Below are positions 10,373 to 61,792 of a DNA stretch of 64,000 nucleotides, piece by piece. Source of the DNA: a virus (Duplodnaviria > Caudoviricetes); the IMG/VR virus record IMGVR_UViG_3300028914_001625, positions 18,751-82,750 of that record; one strand, 5' to 3'. The first letter of the stretch is position 1, and each line of letters opens with the position of its first letter. A program made the position numbers and the translations under genes. A model generated the notes under the pieces. It saw only the letters and a program-made list of their open reading frames with translations, was not told the origin of the DNA and searched no databases.

Positions 10373-10407
10373 AAAGGTGCCCTTTCCGAGACAAAATGGG
10401 CACCTTT
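10373..10407 (-). terminator. intrinsic terminator
   Basis: AAAGGTGCCC/GGGCACCTTT arms; T-run follows on the minus strand. Confidence 0.75.
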
Positions 10408-10429
10408 ATTTCACAATTTTTAGGACTAA

Positions 10430-10729: not shown

Positions 10730-10823
10730 ATTTACCTCACATTATAATGTTATTTGTCATTTCTATTTATCTCAATAAATTTGACGTAGAAAATATAACA
10801 ATTTATATGAGGAAATGAAGTTC

Positions 10824-28387: not shown

Positions 28388-28395
28388 TATTTATA
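28388..28395 (-). promoter_or_regulatory. T4-type late promoter TATAAATA upstream of uvsW
   Basis: Exact TATAAATA on the minus strand, ending 4 bp before the start codon. Confidence 0.6.
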
Positions 28396-44783: not shown

Positions 44784-44791
44784 TATTTATA
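44784..44791 (-). promoter_or_regulatory. T4-type late promoter TATAAATA
   Basis: Exact motif heading the tail-fibre operon. Confidence 0.7.
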
Positions 44792-44807
44792 CAAGAAAAG
44801 ACAACGC

Positions 44808-45236
44808 TTAATGCGTTGTCCATTCCGAATTTGCTTCAAGAATTTCAACTTTCCGAAGATCTCTTTTCTTCTTTTTCTCTCCAGGAATAGTTCTATTTGT
44901 CAAAATGTTCAGAAACTGTTTAATATCTCCTTTTTGTCCCGCTTGCCATGAATATCCGGGTACTTTAGAGCCGTTTATTTCTATCAGTCCAGTATACCAT
45001 TGAACTCGCCAAAAAACCCGTTGGAGGTCATTCGCGAAGAAGGTAATGGAGCCTAAATTTTCCTCTTCCGACATGCCAAAAAAGACTGCTACAGAGCAGT
45101 CTATTCTTTCTTCAGCATTAGGGTCTAAATCATTCCTAATAGAGACATGCAATCCAAAGAACTCAGCGGTCTTCTGAAATGCTTCTACATATTTGGAGAT
45201 AACCTCAATGTTGTGAATGTATGGCTGTATGTCCAT
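44808..45236 (-). CDS. hypothetical protein, C-terminal-motif array member (..RDLRKVEILEANSEWTTH)
   Basis: ORF; shares the C-terminal motif with the 46.6-61.8 kb genes. Confidence 0.75.
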   Translation of the reverse strand: MDIQPYIHNIEVISKYVEAFQKTAEFFGLHVSIRNDLDPNAEERIDCSVAVFFGMSEEENLGSITFFANDLQRVFWRVQWYTGLIEINGSKVPGYSWQAGQKGDIKQFLNILTNRTIPGEKKKKRDLRKVEILEANSEWTTH

Positions 45237-45253
45237 ACATTATTTATCATTTC

Positions 45254-46561
45254 TTACTTTTCCGATGCTGGACGGTGCTTTTCAATGAGAGGGTTAAAGA
45301 TTTCGTCAATGAACTCGCCGTTGAAGTACTTGTCTTCAAGCAAGTCATAAATCTGTCCAAGCAACTTCTTGTATTCATCAGGATTTTCCATCAAGAAACG
45401 AATACGGCTCCACATCTCATCAGGAGAAGTGACCTTACAGTAGTCAGGAAGTTCCTTAAACAAGTTGTCAGTGTCATAAGTGTTCTTGTCCCAGAACGGA
45501 ATGATGCCATAGTACATCATCTTCCAGACCTTCTGTGTAACGAAGTTCTTTCTGGACTTCATGAAAGAAGGAACGAATGTGAACTTTGCTTGCCACATCT
45601 TGTCTTGAATTTCAACGATGCCCTTCTTGATGAATGTTTCAGGATACTTTGCCTGAGCTTCATCGTCCCACTTACCATAGACCTTGCAGTGAGGAAGTTT
45701 CTTAAGAACCCAGTTCTCCAAGAATTCCAAACGGTCATAACCACCGTTCAATGTCAAGATGAACGGACTTGACTTCTGATATGTCTTACGTCCAACCTTG
45801 ATGTTGTCAGGATCTCTGAAGTCAACCTTGTTAAGTTTTCTCAAGAACCATCTTTCTGTCTTGTAGTACTTAAGAATGAACGGTTTCTTTTCATAAGTAT
45901 CAGGATCCTGTGTATAAGAATCCATACAAGACTGCTGATATTCAGCGTTGCATTGAGACAAGTTAAACTCTTCGTGGTGAATTACGTCAACGTCCTGAAC
46001 AGGAACATAACGAGGGTCTTCAATAATGTTATACCACGGGAACTTATACTTGTTAATCAAGTGACGCATCGGTCCGTTATACAAAGCAGCCATCATCAAG
46101 CACTGAGAGAACGAACCTTTCTTGTTCTTACAAGGAATGCCTTCGCCCATAACAGAAACTCGGGCATCTGGACCCTGCATGAAAATTCCAAGGTCAAACT
46201 TCAAGCCATGTGTCTCGACATACTCATCAAGCATGCGCCACGGTTCCTTTCCTGGGACCTTGTAAAGCATGTCTTCTGTATATCCCTTGACTCCAAAGTT
46301 ATACTTGGCTCCAATTTCTGCCTTTGCGGAGTTCCACACATCAACGATGTTCTCAGGAACTTCTTCTTCAGCGAAAAAGCCAGTGTTCTTTTCTTTCCAC
46401 TTTGTAAAGTCAGAAGCACCAAGAATATAGAATGTGTCGTTTGGGTGCTTCTTTGCAAGTTCAAGATAGACGATCTTTGGAGAATCGTCACCTGCATAAA
46501 TGGACCATGAACTTTCATCAAAGTACATGCTTCGTCCAAATTTGCCGATAGCTATGTTCAT
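45254..46561 (-). CDS. GT-B glycosyltransferase resembling T4 DNA beta-glucosyltransferase
   Basis: N-terminus MNIAIGKFG; C-terminus NFVTQKVWKMM...D..YDTDNL...VTSPDEMWSRIRFLMENPDEYKKLL parallels T4 BGT NFITLRVWETM...EFDTKH...VNNRAELIDRVNELKHSDVLRKEML. Confidence 0.65.
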   Translation of the reverse strand: MNIAIGKFGRSMYFDESSWSIYAGDDSPKIVYLELAKKHPNDTFYILGASDFTKWKEKNTGFFAEEEVPENIVDVWNSAKAEIGAKYNFGVKGYTEDMLYKVPGKEPWRMLDEYVETHGLKFDLGIFMQGPDARVSVMGEGIPCKNKKGSFSQCLMMAALYNGPMRHLINKYKFPWYNIIEDPRYVPVQDVDVIHHEEFNLSQCNAEYQQSCMDSYTQDPDTYEKKPFILKYYKTERWFLRKLNKVDFRDPDNIKVGRKTYQKSSPFILTLNGGYDRLEFLENWVLKKLPHCKVYGKWDDEAQAKYPETFIKKGIVEIQDKMWQAKFTFVPSFMKSRKNFVTQKVWKMMYYGIIPFWDKNTYDTDNLFKELPDYCKVTSPDEMWSRIRFLMENPDEYKKLLGQIYDLLEDKYFNGEFIDEIFNPLIEKHRPASEK

Positions 46562-46631
46562 AAATTTACTCCTTTTAAGCTCTTTAGATAAAATATAACA
46601 AATTATTTATGAGTTTAGCAGTTTGCTGAAA

Positions 46632-47342
46632 TTAAATTGTCCAATCAGATGAGCATCTTGCCCGTTCAAACTCCTTCATCATATTTTCTTGAAATAGATT
46701 ATGTTGTTTGATGGACAGTTCTCTGAGCTCATCAATCTGTTTTCTTATAGCCTGAAATTCTTCTTTATATCCTTTAATCTTGTTGGAAAAAAGCATTTCA
46801 TTTACCATTTTGACATCACGAATGTATCGCTTGATAGCACATATCGCCGGTTCAATGTCAAAGGCCAATTCATTCAGTTCTATTTTCGTAAGATGAAAGC
46901 CTACATGGTCAATGTCATACAGTCCAAACGGCGATGTTCGTTTTTCCCAAAGGTAATTGCTTATAGCGCCTCTTACGTCGTTAATCTTTTCCCACATAAT
47001 CCATTCGCCTTCAAGTTCAACACGTTCTTTACTGATTCTTTCATCTATGCAATGTAGATTAACTGCAAAAACTCTATCTTTCGTATCCTGACAAGGCACT
47101 CCCAGTTTTTCATAAAAGTCTCTTAATTCAGGAATGTCTTTCCAAGTGATTCCTCTAAAGACTGTTCCAATCCCACAAGGACTTTTATCCATTTCTGGAT
47201 GCAGCTCATGAAACTTACGGCGGTCTTCAAAGTCCATATCTTCTAACTGAAACTTCAATCTTTCAACTTCGTAAAGGTCAGTACCTAAAGCATCATCAAG
47301 TTTCTTGAGAACTTCCATTCCCGTCATTCTTTGTCTTTTCAT
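46632..47342 (-). CDS. hypothetical protein, array member, 236 aa
   Basis: ORF; ends KEFERARCSSDWTI. Confidence 0.8.
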   Translation of the reverse strand: MKRQRMTGMEVLKKLDDALGTDLYEVERLKFQLEDMDFEDRRKFHELHPEMDKSPCGIGTVFRGITWKDIPELRDFYEKLGVPCQDTKDRVFAVNLHCIDERISKERVELEGEWIMWEKINDVRGAISNYLWEKRTSPFGLYDIDHVGFHLTKIELNELAFDIEPAICAIKRYIRDVKMVNEMLFSNKIKGYKEEFQAIRKQIDELRELSIKQHNLFQENMMKEFERARCSSDWTI

Positions 47343-47344
47343 AG

Positions 47345-48241
47345 TTACTCCATAACATATTGGTTCTTCATCGCTTCATATCTGATAATGAATTTCTGAA
47401 GAAGAACGCAGTAGTACTTATAAACCATCATTGTGAATTCGTCTGGCGGAGCGCCGAACTTGATTTCACTTGGGTCATGTATCTTTCCACAAGAAGCGAA
47501 GAGATGAACTTTAGGAAAGATTCTGTTTCCTGACCAAGATGTCAAGAAGTCATCAGGATTTGCATCTATAACTTCCTCAATTCTCTTGCTCAATTCAATC
47601 ATCTTCGGGTCAAAGTAAAGATTTTCCACCATCTCCATTCGTTGACGATAGACGTTAATAGCGGCCTTTAGAGCCTCTTCTGTAACAACTGGATATTTGA
47701 TACAGTCAATCCCAAAGCCATGACGTAGCGCCCATCTAACCAGCTTCTCATCCGAACCAATGTCACTGTAATAAGTCCAAGTCTTGATGAGAGCGTCTAT
47801 ACCTTTGTCAAAGACCATGTCTCCGTTGCTGATGTAGTTGTTGGACATTAAAGCGGTCGGAACAGAGAATTCTGCAATGATGTGCTTGTCCTGAATAGAC
47901 GGGTCAGTGATAGACTTTCCTTCAAACGGACTTATATGATCATTCCCTGGACCATCATAGCTGACAGTCAACAAGTCAAGATAGGACTTGATTATTCCAT
48001 CCCACTTCTTGACGAACTTTTCTGTTACTTCATCAAGATCGCCTTGGTCAGCATGATATCTAAACGCATAATACTTACAAGGAGATTTATTCGTGACCGC
48101 ATGCCAGCCTGGGTTTCTGACGACCTGAGTCTGATAGAACTTTTTCTCAGGATCTGTAATGAGGTTCGTTTCTTTGAGAATACGAAGTAGCCCGCCTACT
48201 GTAAGACGGGTAGAAGTTTTAAAGACCATTGCATTCATCAT
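47345..48241 (-). CDS. hypothetical protein, 298 aa
   Basis: ORF with ATGA overlap. Confidence 0.8.
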   Translation of the reverse strand: MMNAMVFKTSTRLTVGGLLRILKETNLITDPEKKFYQTQVVRNPGWHAVTNKSPCKYYAFRYHADQGDLDEVTEKFVKKWDGIIKSYLDLLTVSYDGPGNDHISPFEGKSITDPSIQDKHIIAEFSVPTALMSNNYISNGDMVFDKGIDALIKTWTYYSDIGSDEKLVRWALRHGFGIDCIKYPVVTEEALKAAINVYRQRMEMVENLYFDPKMIELSKRIEEVIDANPDDFLTSWSGNRIFPKVHLFASCGKIHDPSEIKFGAPPDEFTMMVYKYYCVLLQKFIIRYEAMKNQYVME

Positions 48242-48909
48242 AATACATTATACTGTGCTTTTAGTGTTGTGAAGTCAATGAGCATTCTTCGCTCAAATTT
48301 GTTAAAGTTCTTTCTGATAAACTCTTTCTTGTCTTCTTCAGCCTTCAAGAGCTTATAGTCTGTAATGATATCCGGAAGTTTCGGGTTGTTCCACAAGTCA
48401 ATCGTATACTTATAGAAGAAACGGAAAACTTTCAAGTACCAAAGAAGTGCTGCCTTTTCTGTCTTAAAGCCAGAAGCGACTTTCGTCCATCCGCTTGCGC
48501 CGCCATTAAATTCATACGGGCTAGGTTCTTCATCAACAGCGACTGCTGTAAAGTCAGAGTCGCCGCCGGCGAAGAGTATCGGGGATCTTTCTTCTTTGAT
48601 GACTTCAGAGATGTATCTTTCAAAACCGACTGGCTTCCAGAGAGAAGTTGTGTTCACATAGATTTCTGAAACTTGATAGCCTCGTTCATCTCCAAGAGAA
48701 TACTGTGAACCCATAATGTCAAAGGTCTTACATTCAACGATGTTGATGTTTCCCATTGACCATTCAAAGATGTCTGTCTTATTCTTAAATAAGTCAGCGG
48801 TTGGGCCAAAGTCCTTAAGCGGAACTCTCGCATTCATGCTAAAGTCCGCTGGAAGTCTGGTCTTAAATCCAATTTCTTGTATCACATTATTAAACTCAGA
48901 AAGTAGCAT
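48238..48909 (-). CDS. hypothetical protein (MLLSEFNN...), 223 aa
   Basis: Start reassigned to ATG 48909 with AGGAG RBS. Confidence 0.78.
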   Translation of the reverse strand: MLLSEFNNVIQEIGFKTRLPADFSMNARVPLKDFGPTADLFKNKTDIFEWSMGNINIVECKTFDIMGSQYSLGDERGYQVSEIYVNTTSLWKPVGFERYISEVIKEERSPILFAGGDSDFTAVAVDEEPSPYEFNGGASGWTKVASGFKTEKAALLWYLKVFRFFYKYTIDLWNNPKLPDIITDYKLLKAEEDKKEFIRKNFNKFERRMLIDFTTLKAQYNVL

Positions 48910-50149: not shown

Positions 50150-50151
50150 GT

Positions 50152-51345
50152 TTATTCCTCACAGATAAATTCTTTTGCTGAACTTGTAATTTCAGTCATT
50201 CTTCTAATCTTCTTACAGACCTGCTCCTTGAACGCTTTATTTTCTCTTTGCATTTCAGTCAATTTTGCAGCTCTTGCATCAATCTCCGCGATGTTCTTTT
50301 TAATCGTTTCAGAATTGAAGTAAGAAAGATTATAGTCAACATATTCCTTTATGTACTTTTCAAATCTTGCTTTAAATTCATTCATTGATGTATCAAGAAT
50401 GCGTGTAACGCCGTGGTCAGTGCCTTGCCAGTTGAATTTTCTATACTCTGCTGCATCACCTCGCCAGACAGGATGTACTTCATACGGATCTCTTGTCTTG
50501 ACAACGATAGACTTTACATATCCTTGATTATGCTGGTTAATTCTTGACTCAATGTCATGAGCACAAGTCCAGTCAGTGACCTTACCAGCCTTATGACGCT
50601 TAACCGCATAGATCTTCTTGCCTACGCGAAGGAAGTCAAGCAAATGTTGGCTCATAAGTACATTGTTACCGTCTGCATTTCTTAAAGACTCTTTTCCGAA
50701 TCCAATTGCAGTTCCGTCAAACAAGTGACGTATGATACCTATAAGCAATGCGTCGTCATTATCAGAATCTGTAAAATCTGTTCCTACATGGTTGTATTTC
50801 TCCATGAACATGTAGTATTCTTCATCTTCAAAAATCAACTTGTTTCTTACAAAGCCAAGCATGATAAGCGGAAGGGCACCCCTCCCAGTTTCTTTCGGAC
50901 CAATCGTTTTCTCAATATCCGGAAGTTCATGCGGATAGATGTAAACCAAAACTCCATCTGCATTACACGGAGCAACTCCGTTATATCTTTCTTTGAACGA
51001 AGTAGAGACTCTGTATTGAGAAATAAGTTCAGCGAAAGTAAAGCAGCCTTCTTGTCCACAAAGCGTGTACCCAATGTCCTTAGACTTAAGATAATTAAGA
51101 ACTTTCCTCAAAGTAATGAAGTCATTCTTTTCAAAGCCAGACCAGATAGAAACACTCTCGTTCGCTACTCTGTCAATGAATTGCTGTTCAATTCTTTGCA
51201 TAGCATACTTTGCAGAAATTGCTTTATACTCTTCACTGCCTTGCTCAATCATATACTGCCTTATCTTATCTTTCTGTTCATTAAGAACTTTTTCAAAGTT
51301 CGCTCTTGCTTTATTTCTTACAGTATTATTCATTAGCGGTCTCAT
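50152..51345 (-). CDS. hypothetical protein, array member, 397 aa
   Basis: Ends KKIRRMTEITSSAKEFICEE. Confidence 0.8.
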   Translation of the reverse strand: MRPLMNNTVRNKARANFEKVLNEQKDKIRQYMIEQGSEEYKAISAKYAMQRIEQQFIDRVANESVSIWSGFEKNDFITLRKVLNYLKSKDIGYTLCGQEGCFTFAELISQYRVSTSFKERYNGVAPCNADGVLVYIYPHELPDIEKTIGPKETGRGALPLIMLGFVRNKLIFEDEEYYMFMEKYNHVGTDFTDSDNDDALLIGIIRHLFDGTAIGFGKESLRNADGNNVLMSQHLLDFLRVGKKIYAVKRHKAGKVTDWTCAHDIESRINQHNQGYVKSIVVKTRDPYEVHPVWRGDAAEYRKFNWQGTDHGVTRILDTSMNEFKARFEKYIKEYVDYNLSYFNSETIKKNIAEIDARAAKLTEMQRENKAFKEQVCKKIRRMTEITSSAKEFICEE

Positions 51346-52033
51346 ATTCTTCGCTCGCTCTGTTAATCTTGTATCTTCTAAATTCTTTTTCAGTCTGCTT
51401 AATGTGCTTAATGTACTTCACAATGAATTCTCTCATGACGGGGCGATAGTCAAGATGGAAGTAAGAACAAACTCTCATAAAGTCTCTCGGATCTTCCAAG
51501 AACTCGACTTCAAGAGGATGCAAGACTTTATCTGCATACTTTCCATCAATGATGTCAACATCACGAATCTCTGAAGTTTCATAACCTACAAGCACATCTG
51601 ACGTTTCCTCTTCATACACGGGAAGGATAAGAAGATAAGGAGTCATGTTCATAGGATTTCTGTTGTTATCTGGAAACAAGACTCTTTCATTTCTATCTCT
51701 TGTGTCGTTATACATCTGATTATTGACATACACAGAAAAGAGAATATCATACGAATCATTAAACCAAACGGAACTTTCAAGCGTGAACGAGAATGTATCT
51801 GTGTAAGAACCAGAAGCACGGTTACGCTTAAGACCGTTTTCAGTCAGAATGTCCATGATGTCCTTGATAGCATAAGTAGGCTGAACCTCTGGAACAATCT
51901 TAATCAAATTTTCCCAGTTCTTACATACCGAAACATTATGAAGAGCTTCATTGATGTCTTCATCGTCTATTTCATGCCAGTCAGTGACAATTCTTTTTCT
52001 GTCACAGCAAAGTGGTGCGGGTACTGTCATCAT
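51326..52033 (-). CDS. hypothetical protein, array member, 235 aa
   Basis: Ends KEFRRYKINRASEEYETANE. Confidence 0.8.
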   Translation of the reverse strand: MMTVPAPLCCDRKRIVTDWHEIDDEDINEALHNVSVCKNWENLIKIVPEVQPTYAIKDIMDILTENGLKRNRASGSYTDTFSFTLESSVWFNDSYDILFSVYVNNQMYNDTRDRNERVLFPDNNRNPMNMTPYLLILPVYEEETSDVLVGYETSEIRDVDIIDGKYADKVLHPLEVEFLEDPRDFMRVCSYFHLDYRPVMREFIVKYIKHIKQTEKEFRRYKINRASEEYETANE

Positions 52034-52494
52034 ACTTTATACTCCTCAGAAGCACTGTTAATCATCTTGCGTCTGATTTCATTTTCCATCGGCTTAATCT
52101 TTTTGTAAAGCACATCAAACTGATGTTTTACTTCTTCAAAGAACTGATCTTTGTCATTAATGTGCATTAAGATTTCATGTGATAAAAAGTCGTCATCAAG
52201 ATGAATGGACAGTTTATCTTTTTCATCCCAATAAGTATCTACATAAGGATGAAGAAAAAGATAAATCGCTGGAGCCACATGTATAGAATTCTGTCTCCTA
52301 AACATGGCAGCTATTGAACTTGTGTGATTGGGAGAAACCATTCTTGAATTGGGCAAGAATAGATGATATGCAGAAGAATCTCTTCTTTTCGCAAGTGCTG
52401 GATAATTTTCCTCTGTTACATATACAAGGTTACATTCATTCACGAGGAAGTCAATCATCTTATGTTCGTCAAAAATGAATTTACTATACAGCAT
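52030..52494 (-). CDS. hypothetical protein, array member (MLYSKF...), 154 aa
   Basis: ATG 52494 with GGAG RBS; ends NEIRRKMINSASEEYKV. Confidence 0.8.
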   Translation of the reverse strand: MLYSKFIFDEHKMIDFLVNECNLVYVTEENYPALAKRRDSSAYHLFLPNSRMVSPNHTSSIAAMFRRQNSIHVAPAIYLFLHPYVDTYWDEKDKLSIHLDDDFLSHEILMHINDKDQFFEEVKHQFDVLYKKIKPMENEIRRKMINSASEEYKV

Positions 52495-53119
52495 AGTCTT
52501 CTCCAGTAGCCATGATTTCTGCTTTTCTGTTTTCAATTTCAACTCGCTTTACCTTTTGAATGATCTCACTCAAAAGTTTGATAAGCGCTTCTTTAAGATC
52601 TTGATGCGCGTAATACCTATCCTGCTGTGTACCACGTAACAGTCTTTGCATTTCCCACTTGTCTTTAAAGTACTCAATGTCTTTTTCACTCATACGCTCA
52701 AAGACTGTGACTGCATTTCCATAACTTTTAGGTTTTTCTTGTCTTGCGCTTTCAATGTCATTCATGTAATAGACTGTGTGCATGTCAGCGTAGTTGTCTC
52801 TGTCATGACGATGCTCAATGCAAAGATTCGGATAGAAATCACTTGTCAAAGGCACATCATTCTTAACATCATTTACTGTATAAGATTCAGTTATGATGAC
52901 TGCTTTGTTCGTCATGATGAGTTCTTCTCTGTCTGAACTCTTCGCATAATAGCTACTATTGTCAAAGATCTTAGACGGAATTAAAAGATACATCGTATAA
53001 AGGCGACATTCACTTGTTGAATTATATGCCTCTTTGACGTGAACTTCACATCCGCTTTCTTTCGCTATCTTAAGCCATTCATGATAGGAAAATTCTAACT
53101 GAAACTCATGTTGCGTCAT
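52484..53119 (-). CDS. hypothetical protein, array member (MTQHEF...), 211 aa
   Basis: ATG 53119 with AGGA RBS; ends IENRKAEIMATGEDYAV. Confidence 0.8.
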   Translation of the reverse strand: MTQHEFQLEFSYHEWLKIAKESGCEVHVKEAYNSTSECRLYTMYLLIPSKIFDNSSYYAKSSDREELIMTNKAVIITESYTVNDVKNDVPLTSDFYPNLCIEHRHDRDNYADMHTVYYMNDIESARQEKPKSYGNAVTVFERMSEKDIEYFKDKWEMQRLLRGTQQDRYYAHQDLKEALIKLLSEIIQKVKRVEIENRKAEIMATGEDYAV

Positions 53120-53660
53120 AGGTTCCTGCACTTTTAGCGATAGCGTGTTTCTTAATCTTCTTTTCAACGGACTTAATGTCTCGCATAACAACATCGAGTC
53201 TGTTTATCAATGTCTGCTTCATCTTATCAACGTCGGAATGAACGTAAAGACAATAATCTGCCCAAGTGTTCGGTTCACTGCCTAAGTTGAAAGAACCTGA
53301 GTACATAGTGACATCAGCGCCTCTAGCAATCTTGTTAAGTCTTCTTACTCTTGCAAGAAAACCAATCTGAATCTTGATGACGCCTCTTACATAGTCAAGT
53401 TCAACAAGTCCAGTGTTGTCTCTATCCCTCTTGGGATACTTAGGTTGGTTGACGAGCGGTCCGTTGTAAGAGAACATAATGTGTTTTCCAGTTTCACCGC
53501 CCCAGAGACCTATAGAGACTAAGTCAGTTCTTTCAAGTCCCAATGATGAAGCATAGTCAGCCAAAGCATCAGCGACCATTCTGAACTTAGTCTTCGTAAT
53601 GTCATTTACTTGAATGACACCTGACTTTGTCTTCCATTCTTCAATAATTTTGTCAAACAT
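53106..53660 (-). CDS. hypothetical protein, array member (MFDKII...), 184 aa
   Basis: Ends KKIKKHAIAKSAGTYDAT. Confidence 0.8.
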   Translation of the reverse strand: MFDKIIEEWKTKSGVIQVNDITKTKFRMVADALADYASSLGLERTDLVSIGLWGGETGKHIMFSYNGPLVNQPKYPKRDRDNTGLVELDYVRGVIKIQIGFLARVRRLNKIARGADVTMYSGSFNLGSEPNTWADYCLYVHSDVDKMKQTLINRLDVVMRDIKSVEKKIKKHAIAKSAGTYDAT

Positions 53661-54057
53661 GATACTGCTCACTTGCTTTTCTAATAAGTTTCCGTTTTTC
53701 TAAAATTTCTTCTTCTTTCTTGCGCTTCATAACAACATCAATCAGAAAAGAATGAAGTACTCTTTCAGTCAATCCTTTAATTTTCCAATCAAGATAGTTG
53801 CCAGCACTTCTGTCAAACTCAAAGTTCTTAATATGTTCTTTACCACCGCCAAAGAAAGCAAATTTGTCAATGATTTTACTAGTATCATTACTGAAACTTT
53901 TCCAAGTAACTCCCATGAACGGGTGCGAATCATACTTCTTAGGTGATGCTGGGTCAAAGACACTTTCATCAAGCATGTACCACCAATAAAGATCATTTGA
54001 CACTTTGAAGATAGGAAAGTTTCCATCTACATACCAAATCAATCCGTTAAGCGTCAT
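53653..54057 (-). CDS. hypothetical protein, array member (MTLNGL...), 134 aa
   Basis: Ends LEKRKLIRKASEQYHV. Confidence 0.78.
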   Translation of the reverse strand: MTLNGLIWYVDGNFPIFKVSNDLYWWYMLDESVFDPASPKKYDSHPFMGVTWKSFSNDTSKIIDKFAFFGGGKEHIKNFEFDRSAGNYLDWKIKGLTERVLHSFLIDVVMKRKKEEEILEKRKLIRKASEQYHV

Positions 54058-54448
54058 ATCTTTTTGCTGTGGCATCTATGAATTCCTTCTTTGCTTTCTT
54101 CTCAAGCTTTCTCTTATCTTGCATTGTCAATTCAAGCAAATTCTTCAATGTCGTTTCATCTAAATCAATGATTTCAGTTTCTCTAATACTGTCGCCGCCT
54201 GGCTTCGCCTTGAAAATAGCACGGTATTCAAAATTTAACTTCGTTGTGTCAATGAAGTATATACTTCCAAGATTATCTCCCCACTGATCTGTCCAGTCAA
54301 AATCAATGAATATGTGCATCACAGGTCTTTGCTTTGATTTATCTTCAAACATGTATTCATCAACGTCAAAGTAAAAAGTGAAGTCCTGAGTCATATCCAA
54401 TTCAGGATAATTATCAAGAACATAATCAATCATTTCCTGAAACGTCAT
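54047..54448 (-). CDS. hypothetical protein, array member, 133 aa
   Basis: Ends KKAKKEFIDATAKRYDA. Confidence 0.8.
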   Translation of the reverse strand: MTFQEMIDYVLDNYPELDMTQDFTFYFDVDEYMFEDKSKQRPVMHIFIDFDWTDQWGDNLGSIYFIDTTKLNFEYRAIFKAKPGGDSIRETEIIDLDETTLKNLLELTMQDKRKLEKKAKKEFIDATAKRYDA

Positions 54449-55160
54449 AATCTAAACCAGCCATCTTTACTTCATTCTTTCTAATCAAGTTGCTGTAACG
54501 ATGCCAAGAGCTAATCAGATTCTTAAACATCACTTCAACTTTGTTCGGGTTCATTCTTGTAACATTTTCCATCTGAAGCGGATAATCAGGTTCCGACCCA
54601 GGTTCTACATCAAAGCAGCCATAGTAGGCACCCTTGACCCAATGATACTTGTCTGTCTTAAGGAATCTTTTGTAAATCCCATCAGTAGTCAAAGGGTAAG
54701 TTCTAAACAGCAAGAAACTTGCATTATAGCAAGGTCTGAAGGAAGCGATAGTAACTCTCGTTGACTTAAAGACCGGTTCATATCGCTTGAACATTTCTTC
54801 ATCAGTTCCAACGAACTTTGGCGGTCTTCCAATACGGTGAGACATCAACTTTTCTTCATTGTCCTTGACATGCCAGAAGTTATAGAACTCGCCTACCCAA
54901 TTGATAGTCGCTTCAGGAACTTCATCAGTACCCATTTCCCATCCCGGGAAGTATTCATCAAGTTTTTCCTTGGTGAAATACGCCTTTGAGGAAGTAGCGT
55001 GATAAACATTTTGGTTGAATGTGTAATCAGAGATAGTAGGAGTAAGACCGTTGCTTCTAAGCAATTCACTTATCCACATTACACAATCTTTCCTAGGAAT
55101 GTCACAAATTTCGCTTTTCCAATCTTCGGGTTTTAAAAATCTTTGATAGAGGTATTCCAT
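54426..55160 (-). CDS. hypothetical protein, array member, 244 aa
   Basis: Ends LIRKNEVKMAGLDYDVSGND; first gene after the promoter at 55183-55211. Confidence 0.8.
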   Translation of the reverse strand: MEYLYQRFLKPEDWKSEICDIPRKDCVMWISELLRSNGLTPTISDYTFNQNVYHATSSKAYFTKEKLDEYFPGWEMGTDEVPEATINWVGEFYNFWHVKDNEEKLMSHRIGRPPKFVGTDEEMFKRYEPVFKSTRVTIASFRPCYNASFLLFRTYPLTTDGIYKRFLKTDKYHWVKGAYYGCFDVEPGSEPDYPLQMENVTRMNPNKVEVMFKNLISSWHRYSNLIRKNEVKMAGLDYDVSGND

Positions 55161-55182
55161 TCTTAAGTTCCTTGTTTTTCAA

Positions 55183-55211
55183 AATATAACAAATTTTCTT
55201 AAAACTGTAAA
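55183..55211 (-). promoter_or_regulatory. sigma70-type promoter (TTTACA-17-TATATT)
   Basis: -35 at 55206-55211, -10 at 55183-55188. Confidence 0.75.
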
Positions 55212-55259
55212 TACCATCTGTCAGAAATTCTTACAAATCTTTCTAAACAAAATAAGAAA

Positions 55260-56375
55260 TTAGGCTGACCACCCGCCAGCGTCAGCCTTAATTTCCTGCT
55301 TCCTTATGTCATTTTTCTTTTTACGACATGCCTGTTGAATACCGCAGGCATACTTGACTTGTTTAGGAAGAATCTCTTTAAGAAGATCTAAGCATTCATC
55401 TTCTGTTAACTGTCCTGTAGCGAAGTCTGGCACAATTCTTGCTTCTTGCATTCTAACCATGTCCGCACGGGCGAAGGTCATGACATTATTTCTCTGACCA
55501 ATTCGGACAACAAGATTAAAGACCATCTTGCCAGTTTCAGTGTTCCATCCGACTTCCTCAAATCCTAAAGAAATACCGGAAGTTCTGAACTGATGGCAGA
55601 ACAGTGCAGTAAGACCTTGATGTTCATCAGATGAGAAGAGCTTTTTCTCAATCTTTGCTTTTCTGTCTGACTTGTATCTGATAATGTCATCAATGTCATG
55701 ATCTGAAATGAGCTTTTCATCGCATGCTTTCCAAACATCTTTTCCATACTTGAGCTTCTTGATGTTCTTGGTGATACGATTATACATCTTTTCAGTACTG
55801 ACATTCATATAGACGCGCATCTGAACTTCACCTTCTTTCCAGCCTCTGCGAGAGTGAGCAACTATTCCCACTGCTTCATTCGGAGCATTCATCTTTGCAT
55901 TGATGTGAGGCTCAACAGAATCATTAAGAGTTACGGAGTTGATGACACGAGCGACTGGACCACCACTTCCTACCTTTGGAAGAGTGTAATGATTAGCTTC
56001 ATTTCTGAACGCATCAGGATCTTCTCCGGAGTCATAGATGTAAGTAAGACCGGAGTCAGCCATGATAGACTTGACTTTGTCAAGGAAAGCGTTTCGCATT
56101 GGTGTGTAAGCAAGATTCGTTTTGCCATCTTCAAGCGGAATGTACTTGATGCGGTCTTTTGTGTTTGCTTTAATGAGAAGATTTCTGGCATTCTCTTTGC
56201 CGATTATCTCATTCAAAGTTCTTTTAGCGATGAAAGGAAATAATGTTTCCCTCAGTATGTTTTCCCATTCAGGCATTATTATGTCTCCTAGTAAATAATC
56301 AAACATTTCTTCCATTGGCACATGAGCAACCAAGTACCAAAAGTCTTGTGCATAATCTATAAAATTCTGTCTCAT
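55260..56375 (-). CDS. hypothetical protein, array member (MRQNF...), 371 aa
   Basis: ATGA overlap start; ends NDIRKQEIKADAGGWSA. Confidence 0.8.
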   Translation of the reverse strand: MRQNFIDYAQDFWYLVAHVPMEEMFDYLLGDIIMPEWENILRETLFPFIAKRTLNEIIGKENARNLLIKANTKDRIKYIPLEDGKTNLAYTPMRNAFLDKVKSIMADSGLTYIYDSGEDPDAFRNEANHYTLPKVGSGGPVARVINSVTLNDSVEPHINAKMNAPNEAVGIVAHSRRGWKEGEVQMRVYMNVSTEKMYNRITKNIKKLKYGKDVWKACDEKLISDHDIDDIIRYKSDRKAKIEKKLFSSDEHQGLTALFCHQFRTSGISLGFEEVGWNTETGKMVFNLVVRIGQRNNVMTFARADMVRMQEARIVPDFATGQLTEDECLDLLKEILPKQVKYACGIQQACRKKKNDIRKQEIKADAGGWSA

Positions 56376-56815
56376 ATTTCCCAATTGATGCGTCTTAATC
56401 TTGCTGCAATCATTTCGTCAAGATCTTCTCGTTCACAGGCGTTGAACTCGCTTTCATAGATAGAAAGCACGATTTCATCCCACCCATTATCAACAAGCAC
56501 ATTTATTTTAATGTCTTTAAGTTCATTTGCTGGGCCTTCAAAAATTGGGAAGAACTTAAAGTCGTTTCCCGTCATTATGCCGCCTAACGGCCAAGTAAGA
56601 CGGCCTTCTTTAACATCACGGACTACTTGCAGTGAAGGCGGTTTTTTCCTCTTCATGCCCAAGTTGCTACCTGGGTTCCAAGGACTTATGATTAGCGCAT
56701 ACCAGAAAATCTTAAGAAAGAGTTTCTGACATTCATCACGTCGTTCTCTTTCAAAGTTTCTTGTATCTATTGCAGCGACATAATTTGTCAATACAAAGTA
56801 TTCACGCGGTGTCAT
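56372..56815 (-). CDS. hypothetical protein, weak array member (MTPREYF...), 147 aa
   Basis: ATGA overlap; ends AARLRRINWEI. Confidence 0.75.
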   Translation of the reverse strand: MTPREYFVLTNYVAAIDTRNFERERRDECQKLFLKIFWYALIISPWNPGSNLGMKRKKPPSLQVVRDVKEGRLTWPLGGIMTGNDFKFFPIFEGPANELKDIKINVLVDNGWDEIVLSIYESEFNACEREDLDEMIAARLRRINWEI

Positions 56816-57270
56816 CTTGCATCCCACATATAAGCAGCCTTCTTGATGGCTTCTTTCTTTGCTTTAAGTTCATCTTTCTTCAAATCAGCACTAAGCAAAA
56901 TAAGAGCATCTTCATAGTCTTGAATTGCTTTTCTGATTCTGCCTCTTGCCCACTCAAAATGTTCAGGACGACGATAACGATAGGTTACCATTGACTTTGT
57001 CTCGCCGTCTTTATCAATGAATGTAGTTCTGATAATGCGTCCGCTGAAGGCATGATAAGTAAAGCCATGAACTACGTCAAGTTCATCAATAGCATGTCCT
57101 TTTCTAAAACACTTCTTTGATTGTGAATAATTACTAAGCTCAGCGATGACCATTTTTGTCCCAGATACATTATTCGGCGACTGATAAGACCATTCATCAT
57201 TCCACTTAGATGCTTTCACAAGTCCTTCACTGCGAAGCATGTCTTCAATCTTTTTCTTATAATCTATCAT
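56812..57270 (-). CDS. hypothetical protein, array member, 152 aa
   Basis: Ends ELKAKKEAIKKAAYMWDAR. Confidence 0.8.
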   Translation of the reverse strand: MIDYKKKIEDMLRSEGLVKASKWNDEWSYQSPNNVSGTKMVIAELSNYSQSKKCFRKGHAIDELDVVHGFTYHAFSGRIIRTTFIDKDGETKSMVTYRYRRPEHFEWARGRIRKAIQDYEDALILLSADLKKDELKAKKEAIKKAAYMWDAR

Positions 57271-57686
57271 ACTATCCAGCCTTCTTGCGCTGTTTCAATT
57301 TCTTCCATGTGCTGAATCTTCTTTTGCTCAACTGCCCACCTTTCGCACCTAGCTTTTGTTTCTTTCAAATTCTTCTTAAGAAACTTAAGGTGTTCTTTCA
57401 TCTTTTCAAAGTCTGCAGGCTGGTCATATCTGAACTTTAACTCAGTAGTCCAAGATGCAGGATATCTGGTTCTGTGTGCAAGATACTTGGTCTTATATGC
57501 CTTAATGACAAGATGCCCATCTTCTATGTCGCATTCAAATTCAGTCGGCATTTCAACAATCTTATCAACCGCATCTTTGACAGTTAAGATTTCCAAGCCA
57601 TCATAAGACCAGATGTCTTCCCAGCTTGAAGTAGTTAAGCCATACTCACAAAGCAGCTCTACAAGTTTCTTACGATGGTTTTTCAT
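57267..57686 (-). CDS. hypothetical protein, array member, 139 aa
   Basis: Ends KKIQHMEEIETAQEGWIV. Confidence 0.8.
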   Translation of the reverse strand: MKNHRKKLVELLCEYGLTTSSWEDIWSYDGLEILTVKDAVDKIVEMPTEFECDIEDGHLVIKAYKTKYLAHRTRYPASWTTELKFRYDQPADFEKMKEHLKFLKKNLKETKARCERWAVEQKKIQHMEEIETAQEGWIV

Positions 57687-58076
57687 TTAAATTTCCCAAT
57701 CAGAAGTGGAGTTTCTTATTTCTCTTTTCTTTGCATTTACTTCAAGTCGCTTAAAGTAAGCGACCGCTTTTGCTTGCGCATCATCAAACTCTTTCTTTAC
57801 TTTAAGTATCTGCGCCTTGATGTCTAAAAGAGAATCATTCTCATAGTTGAAAGACACAGTGTCTAACTTACCATTTGAATCCTTCCTGTAATAGACAGTA
57901 CCATCATTGTAATAGAATCCTACAGGAAGAGTAATTGTGCGAGGTGAGAACTTGACCAATGCAAAGTCAGCAGATTCATAACGCCAGTTCGTTGTTGTCT
58001 CATTGAAACTGTGTGACTCTGTATCAGTGCATCCTAGTTCACGAAGGAATGCAGATATTTCAGATAATCTTGTCAT
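57687..58076 (-). CDS. hypothetical protein, array member (MTRLSEI...), 129 aa
   Basis: TAATG overlap start; ends VNAKKREIRNSTSDWEI. Confidence 0.8.
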   Translation of the reverse strand: MTRLSEISAFLRELGCTDTESHSFNETTTNWRYESADFALVKFSPRTITLPVGFYYNDGTVYYRKDSNGKLDTVSFNYENDSLLDIKAQILKVKKEFDDAQAKAVAYFKRLEVNAKKREIRNSTSDWEI

Positions 58077-58303
58077 TAGTCTTTCCACTGCTTTCTTGCA
58101 TCGTGACCCTTACCGGCATTCCAATTCCACGGTTCACCAGTCGGGTCGTTCCAATCATTACCAAGTGCGGTCCCATCAGGACCAGTCAGCAAGCAAGTGT
58201 CATCGTCAGGTTCCATGCCGCTCATCAGTTGCTTGTTTGTGCGTCTGATGTTTCGGTTGTAACTCTGCTTCCACTTTTTGCCGTTATTATCTGCGTGACT
58301 CAT
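58076..58303 (-). CDS. hypothetical protein, 75 aa
   Basis: GAGG RBS; Trp/Asp-rich. Confidence 0.7.
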   Translation of the reverse strand: MSHADNNGKKWKQSYNRNIRRTNKQLMSGMEPDDDTCLLTGPDGTALGNDWNDPTGEPWNWNAGKGHDARKQWKD

Positions 58304-58311
58304 ATTTCCTC

Positions 58312-58470
58312 TTAGACTGCGTATTCAAGTCCACAATCTCTGATTTCTCTAAGATGATCTTGCTTCTCGCTTTCCTTCAGCATCTTTAACCATTCGTCAA
58401 CATCGGGAAGCGTCTTGTAGCCCATTTCAACTACTTTAATTACTGTGCTTAGCCGTTCCGTCGTTTCCAT
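58312..58470 (-). CDS. 52-aa array member (METTERLSTVIKVVEMGYKTLPDVDEWLKMLKESEKQDHLREIRDCGLEYAV)
   Basis: Hand translation; below the ORF-track cutoff; carries the full C-terminal motif. Confidence 0.7.
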   Translation of the reverse strand: METTERLSTVIKVVEMGYKTLPDVDEWLKMLKESEKQDHLREIRDCGLEYAV

Positions 58471-58798
58471 CTTTTATCCATCCTGCTTTTCTTTTAAGGC
58501 GGTAAGCCTCTTCTTCATTCTTTCTGATAAAAAGCAGGAGACTGTCCACTTCTTTCTCCCTACTTTCTTTGTATCGTTTGACCCAATAGGTAGAGTCTGC
58601 ATTTGCCTTCACAAGCAGCGAACGATACTGGTCCTCAGCCAGGCACTCGCCCAAGATCTTATTCTTGATGATGACTTCTGTCGTTTTAGCGACAAGCGCC
58701 TCATCGTGTTCTTTAACCTTTTTAGGCAGATAAATGGCAACTCCTACAAAGACCGTAATGATAACGACGTAGATAGCAATGAGTTTCACAATATCCAT
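58436..58798 (-). CDS. membrane-anchored protein, 120 aa
   Basis: N-terminal TM helix IAIYVVIITVFVGVAIYL. Confidence 0.75.
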   Translation of the reverse strand: MDIVKLIAIYVVIITVFVGVAIYLPKKVKEHDEALVAKTTEVIIKNKILGECLAEDQYRSLLVKANADSTYWVKRYKESREKEVDSLLLFIRKNEEEAYRLKRKAGWIKDGNDGTAKHSN

Positions 58799-58813
58799 AG
58801 ATGCGCCTCCCGG

Positions 58814-59326
58814 TTATCCCAAATAGTCCACTTCAATGCCATGTTCTGCATTGACTTTAAATCTTACTGCTCGCTTTTCATTCGGGTCAACCGAAATGCG
58901 AACCTTGTTGACCACCAACTCAAGGAACCCGTGCTTTCTGATACATGCCAACAGCGACAGAACGCCGTTCCACTCGATGCACTGGAGGTCAAAGGAAAGA
59001 TACCCGCTGTCCATAGAGACGCCTTCAGGATTCCAAGAATAGCAAAGTTTCGGATTCACAACGAAGTCATTCATATGAACCACCACTTGAACATTTTCAA
59101 TCGAGTCTGCCACAAGCACCTTACGGTAAGGATTTTCATCACGGTCAAGTTCCGCAGCAAGTTCAGGAATACCAATCCGATAATCAAAGTAGACGCTTTC
59201 TCCATCGCAGAAGACCGTCACGCTTCCGTCTTGGTCTCCGTCAATAGTGCAAGCGCAGTCCGGGGTAGAATACTTCTTAAGAAGCATAGCAAGATCCACC
59301 AGCATGTTCTTCATGTTTTCTTTCAT
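58814..59326 (-). CDS. hypothetical protein, 170 aa
   Basis: GGAG RBS; first gene after the promoter. Confidence 0.8.
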   Translation of the reverse strand: MKENMKNMLVDLAMLLKKYSTPDCACTIDGDQDGSVTVFCDGESVYFDYRIGIPELAAELDRDENPYRKVLVADSIENVQVVVHMNDFVVNPKLCYSWNPEGVSMDSGYLSFDLQCIEWNGVLSLLACIRKHGFLELVVNKVRISVDPNEKRAVRFKVNAEHGIEVDYLG

Positions 59327-59356
59327 TTATCGGCTCCTTGTTGAGTTGTTTTCCAT

Positions 59357-59394
59357 TACGTAGTAAAAATAACAATTTTTGCCCATTCTGTAAA
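59357..59394 (-). promoter_or_regulatory. sigma70-type promoter (TTTACA-17-TATTTT, then TACTACGTA)
   Basis: -35 at 59389-59394, -10 at 59366-59371. Confidence 0.8.
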
Positions 59395-59430
59395 TACCAG
59401 CCAGCTAAAATTCTTATCTATCTTTCCAAA

Positions 59431-59898
59431 CTACTTAGCATTCCAATTTCTAACACAGTCCCTTATTTCTTCTTTCTGCCTTCTCTTTCTATCTTCCATC
59501 AACCTCTTATTCCTTTCAATCACAAGTCTGTCTAATTGTCTAACTTGCTCTACAATGTCCTTAAACATCTCTTCTCTATTTTCCAAATCATACTTACGCG
59601 GACTATATCTTCCGTCATTATTCTTTAAAATCTTATACCATACTGGATGCAGACTAAAATCATGGTTAACCCACATTTCCGTAATACTTCCCATCCAATC
59701 TACAAAGACCACCTGTATCTCTTTCTCTTCTTCAACATATCCATCCTGCAAATCAGGATTAGAATAATACCACTTTCTTCTATTCCCTACATCATAACTA
59801 TATAGTCCTATCTTTTCTAATCTTTTATAAATGGATTCTTTCATTTTGCCATTCATAATCATATTCATTTCTATTTGACTCAATTGACTCATTTCCAA
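59431..59898 (-). CDS. hypothetical protein, array member, 155 aa
   Basis: GGAG RBS; ends KRRQKEEIRDCVRNWNAK. Confidence 0.75.
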   Translation of the reverse strand: MEMSQLSQIEMNMIMNGKMKESIYKRLEKIGLYSYDVGNRRKWYYSNPDLQDGYVEEEKEIQVVFVDWMGSITEMWVNHDFSLHPVWYKILKNNDGRYSPRKYDLENREEMFKDIVEQVRQLDRLVIERNKRLMEDRKRRQKEEIRDCVRNWNAK

Positions 59899-60667
59899 AT
59901 ATCTCCTTTAATATCCCAGAATAAACAACATATCAACAAACACACCTAAAAATCTCAATCTCAACCCATCTTAACTACTCAGAATTTTTTTCCGGCCCAT
60001 ATACATCAAAAAAGCACTATTTATTACACAAAATCCAAAATCTCGGGAATCTCACCCATATACAGTCAACTACCCATCTTACAGCGTTCTGTCGTCAAAA
60101 ATACGATTTATCAACATTTTATCAACATTTTTCCAAAATGTTTCTAATTCTTTATCAACAACACACCTATATTTTTCCGAACTATTCATTCAACTACTCA
60201 GAATTTTTTTCCGAGCCCACTAAAATCCGAAAAGTCTAGAAACTATATATAGAAGAAGACTTAAGTTTTTTCCGAAGACCTTATGAGGGAGATCTTTCTC
60301 TTTCTATATTAACAATAAACCATTCTTCAACATAGTAGCGATTTTTTTCTACGGACCTTAGGAGAGACATCTTTCTCTGTCTGTTAGTCCATAGCTTTGC
60401 TGGCAAAACTGGGTGGGGGTAGACGTTTGCCTTAATACATTTTTTCAAAGTTTAGCAAGTCAGTTTTCAGCAACAGTCAAAATACCCATACAGGTTTCCT
60501 GTCAAAAACCATGTCAAAATCACAATTCTTAAAGACCGCCTCTTTCGTCATCTATAAGCGCCTCTTTCTCCTCTAAAATAAATAGAAATGTACATATATT
60601 AGTACTCAAACGAGTGGATACGTCAATCGTATCCATTTAATTGTTTTAATTCAATGGAGGTAATAAC
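59899..60667. other. 770-bp AT-rich non-coding region with direct repeats (replication origin or genome-terminus candidate)
   Basis: No ORF of 60 aa or more; 22-bp direct repeat at 59973 and 60192; three TTATCAACA copies; inverted repeat at 60615-60635. Confidence 0.5.
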
Positions 60668-61057
60668 ATGCGACTAATACCACAGATATTGCGATACTAT
60701 CTCGTATTCAATTCAGTACGTTCGTTGTCAGTTGATGTGATGCTAGACCACTGCGACTCCTTCCCCCACTTGCTGCACGTTAAGCAGACGTTGCTCCATG
60801 ATATCCCCAAGGCATACAAGTTGATAGATGATACCCTTGAGGAGCTCGGGAATGGCACGTTCCATTTCAAGTATCGTAGCAGAAAGGAACAGGGAAAGGA
60901 TTACGATCCGATGATACTCTGGGAGGAGGATATAGCAGAGGCTACGTATACTAACTGGCAGCTTATGGAGGTCTGTAGAAATATACGGACGTGGCTATCT
61001 CACCAGCGTCCCTATAAGTATCCAGCCGAGATATACGAATCGTTATACAGTAAATAG
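60668..61057 (+). CDS. hypothetical protein, 129 aa (only + strand gene in the right 29 kb)
   Basis: GGAGG RBS before ATG; convergent with 61043-61792. Confidence 0.65.
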   Translation: MRLIPQILRYYLVFNSVRSLSVDVMLDHCDSFPHLLHVKQTLLHDIPKAYKLIDDTLEELGNGTFHFKYRSRKEQGKDYDPMILWEEDIAEATYTNWQLMEVCRNIRTWLSHQRPYKYPAEIYESLYSK

Positions 61058-61792
61058 ACTACAGCATTCGCGTATCTCCTTCTGGCGTTCTGCCTTCCGG
61101 TGCTCGATGTACTTGCGCTGAACCTTCTTTATATGCTTAGCGATAGTATCAAGGCACTGCTGGCGGAACGCTTTATCTGTATTCAATCGTTCAATCGTCT
61201 GTATCCCGGCGTAAGCAGAACCAGTACGTCTGCCCAGTTCGTCCTTGGTGCAGTCAAGGCCCCAGAGCCATTTGTTCTGTCTGTCCTCTAGCTTCTCGAC
61301 CGAGGGGTGCTCGTACTGGCGGACTATCTGTGCAGCCTCGTCTTCGTATTCCCAGACCAGTTCGTCACCAACCCAGAAATCCAATTCACCAGTGTTCGGC
61401 CAGAACGCAACGATCGTGTCGTCGTCGAGATTCCAATGCTCTTTATCCTTACCGTCGTCAATCAATACCCACGATTCGTTCTCGTGGCTCACTGCATCAA
61501 ATAGCCTGGTAACTGGGTGACTGTAGCCTAGGTCAGCGCATTCCGACTCTGTCATGCACAGCCAATCACAGTCAAGCCTGACCCCGACTTCTGTCCGCCA
61601 GAATTCCTGCAGCTTGAAAGGATCTGGCGTCCACCAGTTGTACTGTTTCTCAGGCTTGTGGCGCCGGTAAAGTCCACAGTCTTGGCATACCTTCGCTACG
61701 TCTTTGTAGAAATCATACGCGAGGCGCCGGTAATACTGTGCGGACTTGTTATGTTCACTGATAATGTCTAATCTGTTGTTTACGATAGTCAT
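61043..61792 (-). CDS. hypothetical protein, array member, 249 aa
   Basis: Ends HRKAERQKEIRECCSLFTV. Confidence 0.8.
   Translation of the reverse strand: MTIVNNRLDIISEHNKSAQYYRRLAYDFYKDVAKVCQDCGLYRRHKPEKQYNWWTPDPFKLQEFWRTEVGVRLDCDWLCMTESECADLGYSHPVTRLFDAVSHENESWVLIDDGKDKEHWNLDDDTIVAFWPNTGELDFWVGDELVWEYEDEAAQIVRQYEHPSVEKLEDRQNKWLWGLDCTKDELGRRTGSAYAGIQTIERLNTDKAFRQQCLDTIAKHIKKVQRKYIEHRKAERQKEIRECCSLFTV

Follow-up and report, generated by a model that had tools for sequence, protein, structure and literature searches.

How do two dozen proteins with largely dissimilar bodies come to end in the same way? The question is raised by an array of tightly packed genes, nearly all on the minus strand, in a window of 64,000 nucleotides that corresponds to bases 18751-82750 of the 82.75-kb IMG/VR virus record IMGVR_UViG_3300028914_001625. 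The record, which is about 25% complete according to CheckV, derives from a giant T4-like phage that has not been cultured, and it encodes a helicase, SbcCD-like gp46/gp47, a DNA ligase and long fibre-like proteins. Positions given below are those of the window unless stated otherwise. An earlier note on this DNA had described about 17 open reading frames (ORFs) at 44808-61792 that share a C-terminal helix and a terminal motif, and had proposed that this tail lets variable effector domains bind one partner. The reading presented here is that of a lineage-specific, tandemly amplified family of early genes, in which the last 14 residues would provide a shared binding face and the heads would be free to diverge. 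We give this reading a probability of slightly less than one half (about 0.45).

The C-terminal motif is conserved at the protein level

All 16 ORFs that the note had listed as examples were found on the minus strand, with their stops where it had placed them and with the endings it had quoted. The count of members is based on simple gene calling of the entire record. The ending is real but occurs more widely than the 17 ORFs suggested, as it was detected in 24 of the approximately 120 ORFs of the fragment, 20 of them in the window and four in the preceding 18.7 kb. The statement that genes of the 1-17 kb region do not end in this way was contradicted by 9556-10224, 10824-11531 and 11532-11912. 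Anchored on the last aromatic residue, the 24 members align without gaps over a 14-residue motif at the end of a basic helix, with the consensus [RK](-11)-K(-10)-x-E(-8)-I(-7)-[KR]-x-[ACS](-4)-[SGA](-3)-x-[DE](-1)-[YWF](0)-x-[VAI](+2). Fourteen tails stop exactly at [VAI], nine add one to four residues and one ends one residue early; the final residue differs between tails (V, A, I, H, E, N, D, R, K, T or C). No conservation was seen at the N-termini of the 24 ORFs.

Enrichment of the motif at C-terminal ends was evident in two analyses. With a leave-one-out position-specific scoring matrix of 14 columns, the best window was located at the C-terminal end in 22 of the 24 members, with scores of 7.7-22.9 bits. 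Among 21,251 windows in 98 other ORFs, two reached 10 bits, and the higher of these was an internal copy of the motif in 61859-63130 (residues 178-191, nucleotides 62558-62599). A six-frame profile search of the record displayed 25 matches at E<=1. Twenty-four of them were the members, all at ORF ends on the minus strand, and the weakest match (E 0.017) was a non-member. A further copy was found close to the N-terminus of member 50152-51345 (residues 29-42, nucleotides 51220-51261, RQYMIEQGSEEYKA, 15.4 bits). The motif is real and stronger than first noted.

In such densely packed genes, the motif might be a by-product of packing, composed of the Shine-Dalgarno sequence and the start codon of the next gene inside the tail-coding DNA. 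In fact, the start of the next gene lies within 20 nucleotides of the aromatic codon, by overlap or abutment, in 16 of the 24 tails, and seven of the 13 Tyr tails supply the next start codon themselves, T-ATG being made up of the Tyr codon and the G behind it. GAGGAG (Glu-Glu) is present just upstream in some tails. Packing may favor Tyr followed by a G-initial codon as well as purine-rich codons at -3 to -1, and the start overlap may add to the preference for Tyr and then Asp, Glu or Ala. The short extensions after the motif are explained by overlap with the next gene. However, eight tails without any start within 76 nucleotides retain the motif at 8-17 bits, so that the start-overlap constraint, which the note had named among possible refutations, does not account for it. 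Moreover, Ile(-7), Glu(-8) and the basic pair at -11/-10 are encoded 21-33 nucleotides upstream of the aromatic codon, too far for a ribosome-binding site, and the motif is missing from the other overlapping genes of the record.

The distribution of information within codons points in the same direction. Information in the tail-coding DNA is concentrated in codon positions 1 and 2, and most third positions carry less than 0.4 bits (per base, 1.34/1.75/0.29 bits for the Ile codon and 2.00/0.62/0.72 bits for the aromatic codon). Trp (TGG), Tyr and Phe (TTT) interchange at the aromatic site, and Ala, Cys and Ser at the small site. Since the first two codon positions are conserved, the third is free and residues interchange, it is the amino acids that are conserved, which excludes recent gene conversion. 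Purifying selection acts on the tail at the protein level. On the strength of the codon-position information, the start-free tails and the distance of Ile, Glu and the basic pair, the start-overlap explanation was rejected, and we see almost no chance that it is correct. The seven T-ATG-N junctions at Tyr codons are located at 51326-55160 of the window and at 9805-11242 of the record; four of the seven downstream genes begin with Met-Thr.

Heads, terminal helix and their relationship

The bodies were compared by an all-against-all blastp search, which gave matches almost solely in the tails. Four members (56812, 57267, 57687 and 59431) are full-length paralogs and are referred to as subfamily A; 53653 and 54047 (subfamily B) have a common N-terminal part; and 50152 shares one 52-column stretch with 61043 (HHalign score 31.5, P 8.5e-4). 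HHalign comparison of the bodies after removal of the last 22 residues resulted in a median score of 12.9 for the 276 member-member pairs, ten of which scored at least 20, and a median of 12.45 for 288 member-control pairs, seven of which scored at least 20. The description of the bodies as otherwise dissimilar was borne out at the sequence level by both methods. A hidden Markov model of subfamily A, iterated over the pooled proteomes, stopped at the four paralogs and their orthologs. PHROGs yielded no family for ten members. In Pfam-A the curated cut-off was not exceeded by any of 17 window members or by the two upstream members, of four, that were scanned; the scans did not extend to the 52-aa ORF, the three members located at 9.5-11.9 kb and the other two upstream members. 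Nothing above threshold was obtained with PHROGs or Pfam for non-member genes of the array, and no usable match in the ESM Atlas for two members. A helix ending in G-L, which is present in about half of the bodies, is not claimed as a motif, its total information being within the control range.

Structure prediction with AlphaFold2 (AF2) was performed for one member of each subfamily. The model of 57267-57686, calculated from the subfamily A alignment with a predicted local distance difference test (pLDDT) score of 76, consists of a helix (residues 2-14), four strands (25-28, 43-55, 58-69 and 72-86) and a second helix (90-137). The strands comprise only 4-15 residues, and the C-terminal helix of 48 residues runs to the end of the protein with confidence dropping from 91 to 61. 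The model of 54047-54448 (pLDDT 57) displays the same order of elements, with helices at 3-13 and 98-130 and four strands between them. Modular effector domains of unrelated fold, as envisaged in the note, are difficult to reconcile with the common element order of the two models, the fixed 33-residue register described below and the recurrent gene junctions. These features point to a diverged tandem family, the outcome (one paralogous fold in place of a modular tag) that the note had named as refuting it; the two subfamilies agree in element order (the second model being weak), but sequence comparison revealed no link between them.

A Foldseek search of the PDB with the 57267-57686 model returned nothing at E<=0.001. 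A structure search aligned the same model, over its residues 1-110, with frataxins (Z 8.0, root mean square deviation 2.5 A over 78 residues) and Med17C (Z 8.2), although Z values of 8.0-8.2 over 78-87 residues correspond to the background level of the tool for models without a true match. SycN/YscB-type chaperones followed at Z 5-6 and the C-terminal domain (CTD) of MotA at Z 5.2-5.8.

In the anchored alignment of the 24 proteins, hydrophobic columns occur at -30, -26, -23/-22, -19, -16 and -12. This heptad-like stripe and the terminal motif stand in a fixed, ungapped register, and the conserved unit comprises about 33 residues. Ile(-7), the small residue (-4) and the aromatic residue (0) are spaced i, i+3 and i+7 on one helical face, between fixed charges. 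We infer that the stripe from -30 to -12 packs on the head and covers the sheet.

The same features could indicate self-association, with the C-terminal helix forming a homo-oligomeric coiled coil or pairing between members and the motif serving as a cap or trigger without any external partner. The 4-3-4-3-4 hydrophobic spacing between -30 and -12 and the helices of 33-48 residues in both models are consistent with this idea, and a small residue at the d-like position (-4) beside Ile and an aromatic residue resembles tightly packed helix pairs. However, a two-layer alpha/beta sandwich needs the stripe for its sheet, which leaves about 12 residues free, and the ends of coiled coils normally do not exhibit ten conserved positions, including fixed charges, across otherwise unlike paralogs. 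We consider self-association rather unlikely.

Three further candidates for the tail were rejected on features of the motif alone. A membrane-targeting amphipathic helix does not fit the motif, which has too few hydrophobic residues and acidic residues beside the aromatic one. An inverted bZIP-like DNA-binding end is at variance with conserved acidic residues at -8, -1 and +1. The EEY/F ending of EB1 and tubulin has its aromatic residue at the terminus, unlike the motif; among the genes examined no phage tubulin came to notice, although none was searched for.

Distribution, expression and interpretation of the array

Profile searches and related records showed that the motif is limited to one phage clade. 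Five close relatives (L003, L004, L006, L007 and L031) possess the same array with gene-by-gene variation and orthologs of 60-100% identity. When the subfamily A profile was compared with 1.84 billion proteins, nine matches at E<=0.001 were obtained. The full-length ones all belong to the same clade; one of these, P0016, is less than 50% identical and retains HQKEIIEAQEGWEV. Two hits are partial matches to proteins of 706 and 2,655 aa. Among the longer proteins of a set of 5.8 billion, the tail profile gave 23 matches at E<=10, in which only same-clade proteins and no new body type were seen; six were inspected and proved to be orthologs of known members or pieces of them, and the remainder have the lengths of members. 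The same profile gave 25 matches in its own record and none in five related phage records, and a related-locus search with one member as query found no relatives. No match was obtained when 8.5 kb of the array were compared by megablast with 50,697 phage records. The neighboring 435-aa gene (45254-46561) gave only tblastn matches of 26-28% identity, to Enterococcus and Pseudoalteromonas phages, which indicates that there is no cultured relative. No array of this kind adjoins the relatives of this gene at 55-25% identity.

In a sister phage (G001), the counterpart of the 435-aa gene is 86% identical and that of the plus-strand gene 60668-61057 is 54% identical. The corresponding syntenic slot of its genome holds an array without sequence similarity to the one in the window and with a different ending, N-x4-G-L-x(1-2)-stop. 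This ending was found at five ORF ends (0.11 expected), four of them in the G001 array, and never in the present phage (G000). The G001 array (L002:2660-9924, G001 108353-115617) consists of about ten consecutive ORFs of 205-283 aa, all of which have a long, charged helix at the C-terminus; the ending N-[AE]-x3-G-L-x(1-2) is present in four. The only member with a syntenic ortholog in G001 is 44808-45236. The two proteins have the basic helix in common but not the motif, the G001 form ending QLKEERETL.

Comparison of the close relatives also revealed a natural crossover. In L003, the ortholog of 53653-54075 is absent owing to recombination inside the tail-coding DNA of two neighbors, an in-frame deletion that left a chimeric tail. 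Alignment of L003:9230-9345 with L006:8942-9057 and L006:9357-9472 showed that the 54047-54448 ortholog switches its gene source at the Ile codon of the tail. An event that removed one body in this way would suit a mobile module of 14-33 residues, recombined onto heads of different fold and acting as an address for delivery to one receptor. The lack of body similarity once the tails are cut, the 52-aa ORF that is almost only tail, the extra copies at the N-terminus of 50152-51345 and inside 61859-63130, and the G001 ortholog of 44808-45236 with a similar helix but no motif can be read likewise. The non-terminal copies are, however, equally explained by fusion of neighboring genes. Judged from their sequences, both ORFs look like fusions of family genes after loss of a stop codon, and 61859-63130 looks like two fused family units because the body preceding its internal copy matches the subfamily A profile (residues 94-186, E 0.009). 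In addition, the two modelled subfamilies have the same order of secondary-structure elements, the register between stripe and motif is fixed without a variable linker, stop/start junctions recur, and no recognizable Pfam or PHROG domain, which would mark a foreign origin, was found in the scanned members. The fixed register, the recurrent T-ATG junction and the tandem layout together favor a family that arose by tandem duplication and whose heads have diverged, and a mobile module appears improbable.

The few intergenic gaps of the array hold matching promoter-like sequences (GGTATTTACAG, 17 nucleotides, TGTTATATT). A T4 late box, TATAAATA, is found only after the last member, where it precedes a gene for a 1007-aa fibre-like protein; its only other copy in the window is at 28388-28395. 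The note had placed the array under early promoters, and the putative sigma-70-like boxes in the gaps agree with this. Early expression of the array is plausible.

A C-terminal position and probable early expression would also be expected of a degron by which a protease or unfoldase of host or phage recognizes early proteins and removes all of them at one time, and [DE]-Y-A-V loosely recalls the ssrA end E-N-Y-A-L-A-A. C-terminal degrons are, however, read from the free end. Ten of the 24 tails depart from the exact [VAI] terminus, the last residues vary, none has an Ala-Ala end as in ssrA/ClpX C-motif 1, and internal and N-terminal copies exist. A degron is very improbable.

The family reading can be put as follows. 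Tandem amplification would have generated a set of small proteins, probably made early in infection, each composed of a head that evolves rapidly and a conserved helix of about 33 residues at the C-terminus. The head, where modelled, would consist of an N-terminal helix and a four-stranded antiparallel sheet. The first two-thirds of the C-terminal helix would pack on the head, and the last 14 residues would probably project beyond it. Purifying selection would hold the Ile/small/aromatic face while the heads diverge beyond sequence recognition, and this face most likely docks all heads on one shared partner, a phage or host protein. The shared docking surface proposed in the note remains a reasonable reading in view of a protein-level tail on dissimilar bodies and an ORF that is nearly tail only, but its capsid and unrelated-fold parts are not supported.

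Several points weigh against this interpretation. The motif, its enrichment, protein-level selection, restriction to one clade and the different ending in G001 are observations, whereas projection of the tail, docking, the partner, early timing and common descent of the heads are all things that we infer. Common descent of all heads is not supported by the tail-less HHalign comparison, in which member-member pairs scored like member-control pairs, and an unbiased Gibbs motif search on the bodies performed no better than control sets (508 versus 488-510 bits). The model of 54047-54448 is of low confidence, and the two models cover 2 of approximately 20 body types. AF2 places the whole tail in a helix at a pLDDT of only 61-72; a helix cap with a short strand behind it, at [SGA]-x-[DE]-[YWF]-x-[VAI], would fit equally well. 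Between close orthologs, 11 tail residues are no better conserved than the bodies (14.6% versus 15.8% differences). Finally, promoter-like sites over the whole region do not exceed the shuffled expectation (45 versus 42.4).

A more far-reaching proposal is that the tail is an address label, with one receptor, encoded by phage or host, that binds the Ile/small/aromatic face, gathers about a fifth of the early proteome (24 of approximately 120 ORFs) at a single site and co-evolves with the label. We regard this as doubtful. Co-evolution of receptor and label would explain the different ending, N-x4-G-L, in the same slot of G001. Large phages carry hundreds of small early genes without assigned function, most of which cannot be grouped; here, one 14-residue element links two dozen of them. 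The tail peptide offers an experimental handle, as it may be used as bait for common contacts, after which the heads can be compared as variants of a single design. Should there be a single receptor, the array would exemplify how giant phages organize accessory or anti-defence proteins. If the tail is no more than the most conserved helix in a family that evolves rapidly, it would be a useful annotation marker for the clade, of modest general interest.

Two neighboring elements were recorded along with the array. The 435-aa protein is found across many large phages at 86% to 25% identity, and its only domain match is a sub-threshold one to Glyco_trans_1_2 (glycosyltransferase-like). Its gene adjoins the array, with member 44808-45236 on its far side, and also occurs in phages that lack an array. 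The largest non-coding gap of the array (59880-60450) contains an exact 22-nucleotide direct repeat (59973-59994 and 60192-60213), four TTTATCAACA units within 60096-60186, the first three at 11-nucleotide spacing, and a 40-nucleotide pair of 80% identity (60266-60382). Such a repeat-rich gap could be a regulatory or origin-like region. The coordinates of the members and the other features are compiled in Table 1.

Table 1. Members of the proposed family and associated features in the window.
Feature	Coordinates	Strand	Remarks
Member, 142 aa	44808-45236	-	ends KVEILEANSEWTTH, 12.3 bits; last gene before fibre genes
Degenerate member, 236 aa	46632-47342	-	ends FERARCSSDWTI; Ile position lost, 8.1 bits
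Member, 397 aa	50152-51345	-	ends EITSSAKEFICEE; second motif copy near N-terminus
Member, 235 aa	51326-52033	-	ends KINRASEEYETANE; ATG of next gene inside Tyr codon
Member	52030-52542	-	ends MINSASEEYKV; 154 aa from probable true start
Member	52484-53194	-	ends EIMATGEDYAV, 22.9 bits; database form from Met26, 211 aa
Member	53106-53672	-	ends AIAKSAGTYDAT
Member, subfamily B	53653-54075	-	ends LIRKASEQYHV; N-terminal similarity to 54047-54448
Member, 133 aa, subfamily B	54047-54448	-	ends FIDATAKRYDA; AF2-modelled
Member, 244 aa	54426-55160	-	ends EVKMAGLDYDVSGND; C-terminal extension is overlap with next gene
Member	55260-56384	-	ends EIKADAGGWSA; 338 aa from MPEWEN in relatives
Member, 152 aa, subfamily A	56812-57270	-	ends AIKKAAYMWDAR
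Member, 139 aa, subfamily A	57267-57686	-	ends EIETAQEGWIV; AF2-modelled
Member, subfamily A	57687-58088	-	ends EIRNSTSDWEI
52-aa ORF, hardly more than helix and tail	58312-58470	-	ends EIRDCGLEYAV, 21.5 bits
Member, subfamily A	59431-59898	-	ends EIRDCVRNWNAK
Member, 249 aa	61043-61792	-	ends EIRECCSLFTV; body weakly similar to 50152-51345
423-aa protein with internal motif copy	61859-63130	-	internal copy KKAEIESSNGEYIA, 20.9 bits (scoring matrix); subfamily A profile match
Member outside 44808-61792, 222 aa	9556-10224	-	ends EIMQSLRQYNA, 10.3 bits
Member outside 44808-61792, 235 aa	10824-11531	-	ends EIKDCGKNYC, 15.3 bits
Weak member outside 44808-61792, 126 aa	11532-11912	-	ends QVINNENDWEV; E 4e-8 with itself in profile, missed by leave-one-out
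Putative sigma-70-like promoter	55183-55211	-	TTTACA-17-TATATT with TG; gap upstream of 54426-55160
Putative sigma-70-like promoter	59366-59394	-	TTTACA-17-TATTTT with TG; gap upstream of 58814-59326
Terminator-like hairpin, then T4 late box	44784-44821	-	hairpin 44799-44821, perfect late box 44784-44791; array end, start of fibre unit

Comparison with known systems

A keyword search of the literature for tandem phage paralogs with a C-terminal motif retrieved nothing relevant. The array resembles the tandem families that diverge rapidly in hyperplastic regions of large phages, and the tandem arrays of small, polymorphic alpha/beta proteins of the immunity type, as it consists of small ORFans between conserved flanks, is lineage-specific and turns over rapidly. 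G000 and G001 share the flanks of the array (86% and 54% identity) but not its content. In contrast to such families, which are usually recognized over their full length, the array is recognizable only by its last 14-33 residues, and two sisters have different endings. Frataxin/CyaY, type III secretion system chaperones and the MotA CTD have a two-layer alpha/beta arrangement in common with the 57267-57686 model at background-level Z scores, and none of them possesses a protruding conserved tail.

Short terminal peptides of known function were considered as well. Ligands of class II PDZ domains and tail-specific proteases (hydrophobic-x-hydrophobic-COOH) have their motif in the last three residues; 14 tails end exactly [YWF]-x-[VAI]-stop, the other ten do not end in this way, and internal copies exist. 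Sliding-clamp peptides (QL[SD]LF; PIP box Qxx[ILM]xx[FY][FY]) differ from the tail, which has no conserved Gln, a single aromatic residue and a spacing of 7 instead of 3-4 between Ile and the aromatic residue. Encapsulin cargo-loading peptides are short conserved C-terminal peptides on diverse proteins that are bound by one receptor. They are Gly/Ser/Leu-rich and extended, whereas the array tail is a charged helix, so that the likeness is an analogy only.

The capsid targeting sequence (CTS) of T4 is N-terminal, about ten residues long and cut off by the prohead protease at an L/I-x-E site directly behind it. The conserved element of the 24 ORFs is located at the opposite end, and it lies within 1-6 residues of the stop with no I/L-x-E following it. 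Packaging into the capsid in the manner of the CTS, as suggested in the note, finds no support in view of this C-terminal position, the missing protease-site context, the early-looking promoters and the lack of a link to the virion. A further difference from the CTS is that the tail is a helix whose register relative to the body is fixed. The T-even internal proteins form a diverse set joined only by the CTS (PMC3012670). At the sequence level the array members are likewise diverse bodies joined by a tag, as judged from the tail-less HHalign comparison. Both the T-even proteins (IPI, IPII, IPIII and Alt) and the array are diverse sets with one short terminal peptide, which in the array would serve a common interaction as well, and both occur in variable genome regions of T4-like phages. 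The likeness is one of logic and not of membership. Should a single receptor exist, the tail would correspond to the T4 capsid targeting sequence, but at the C-terminus and on early gene products.

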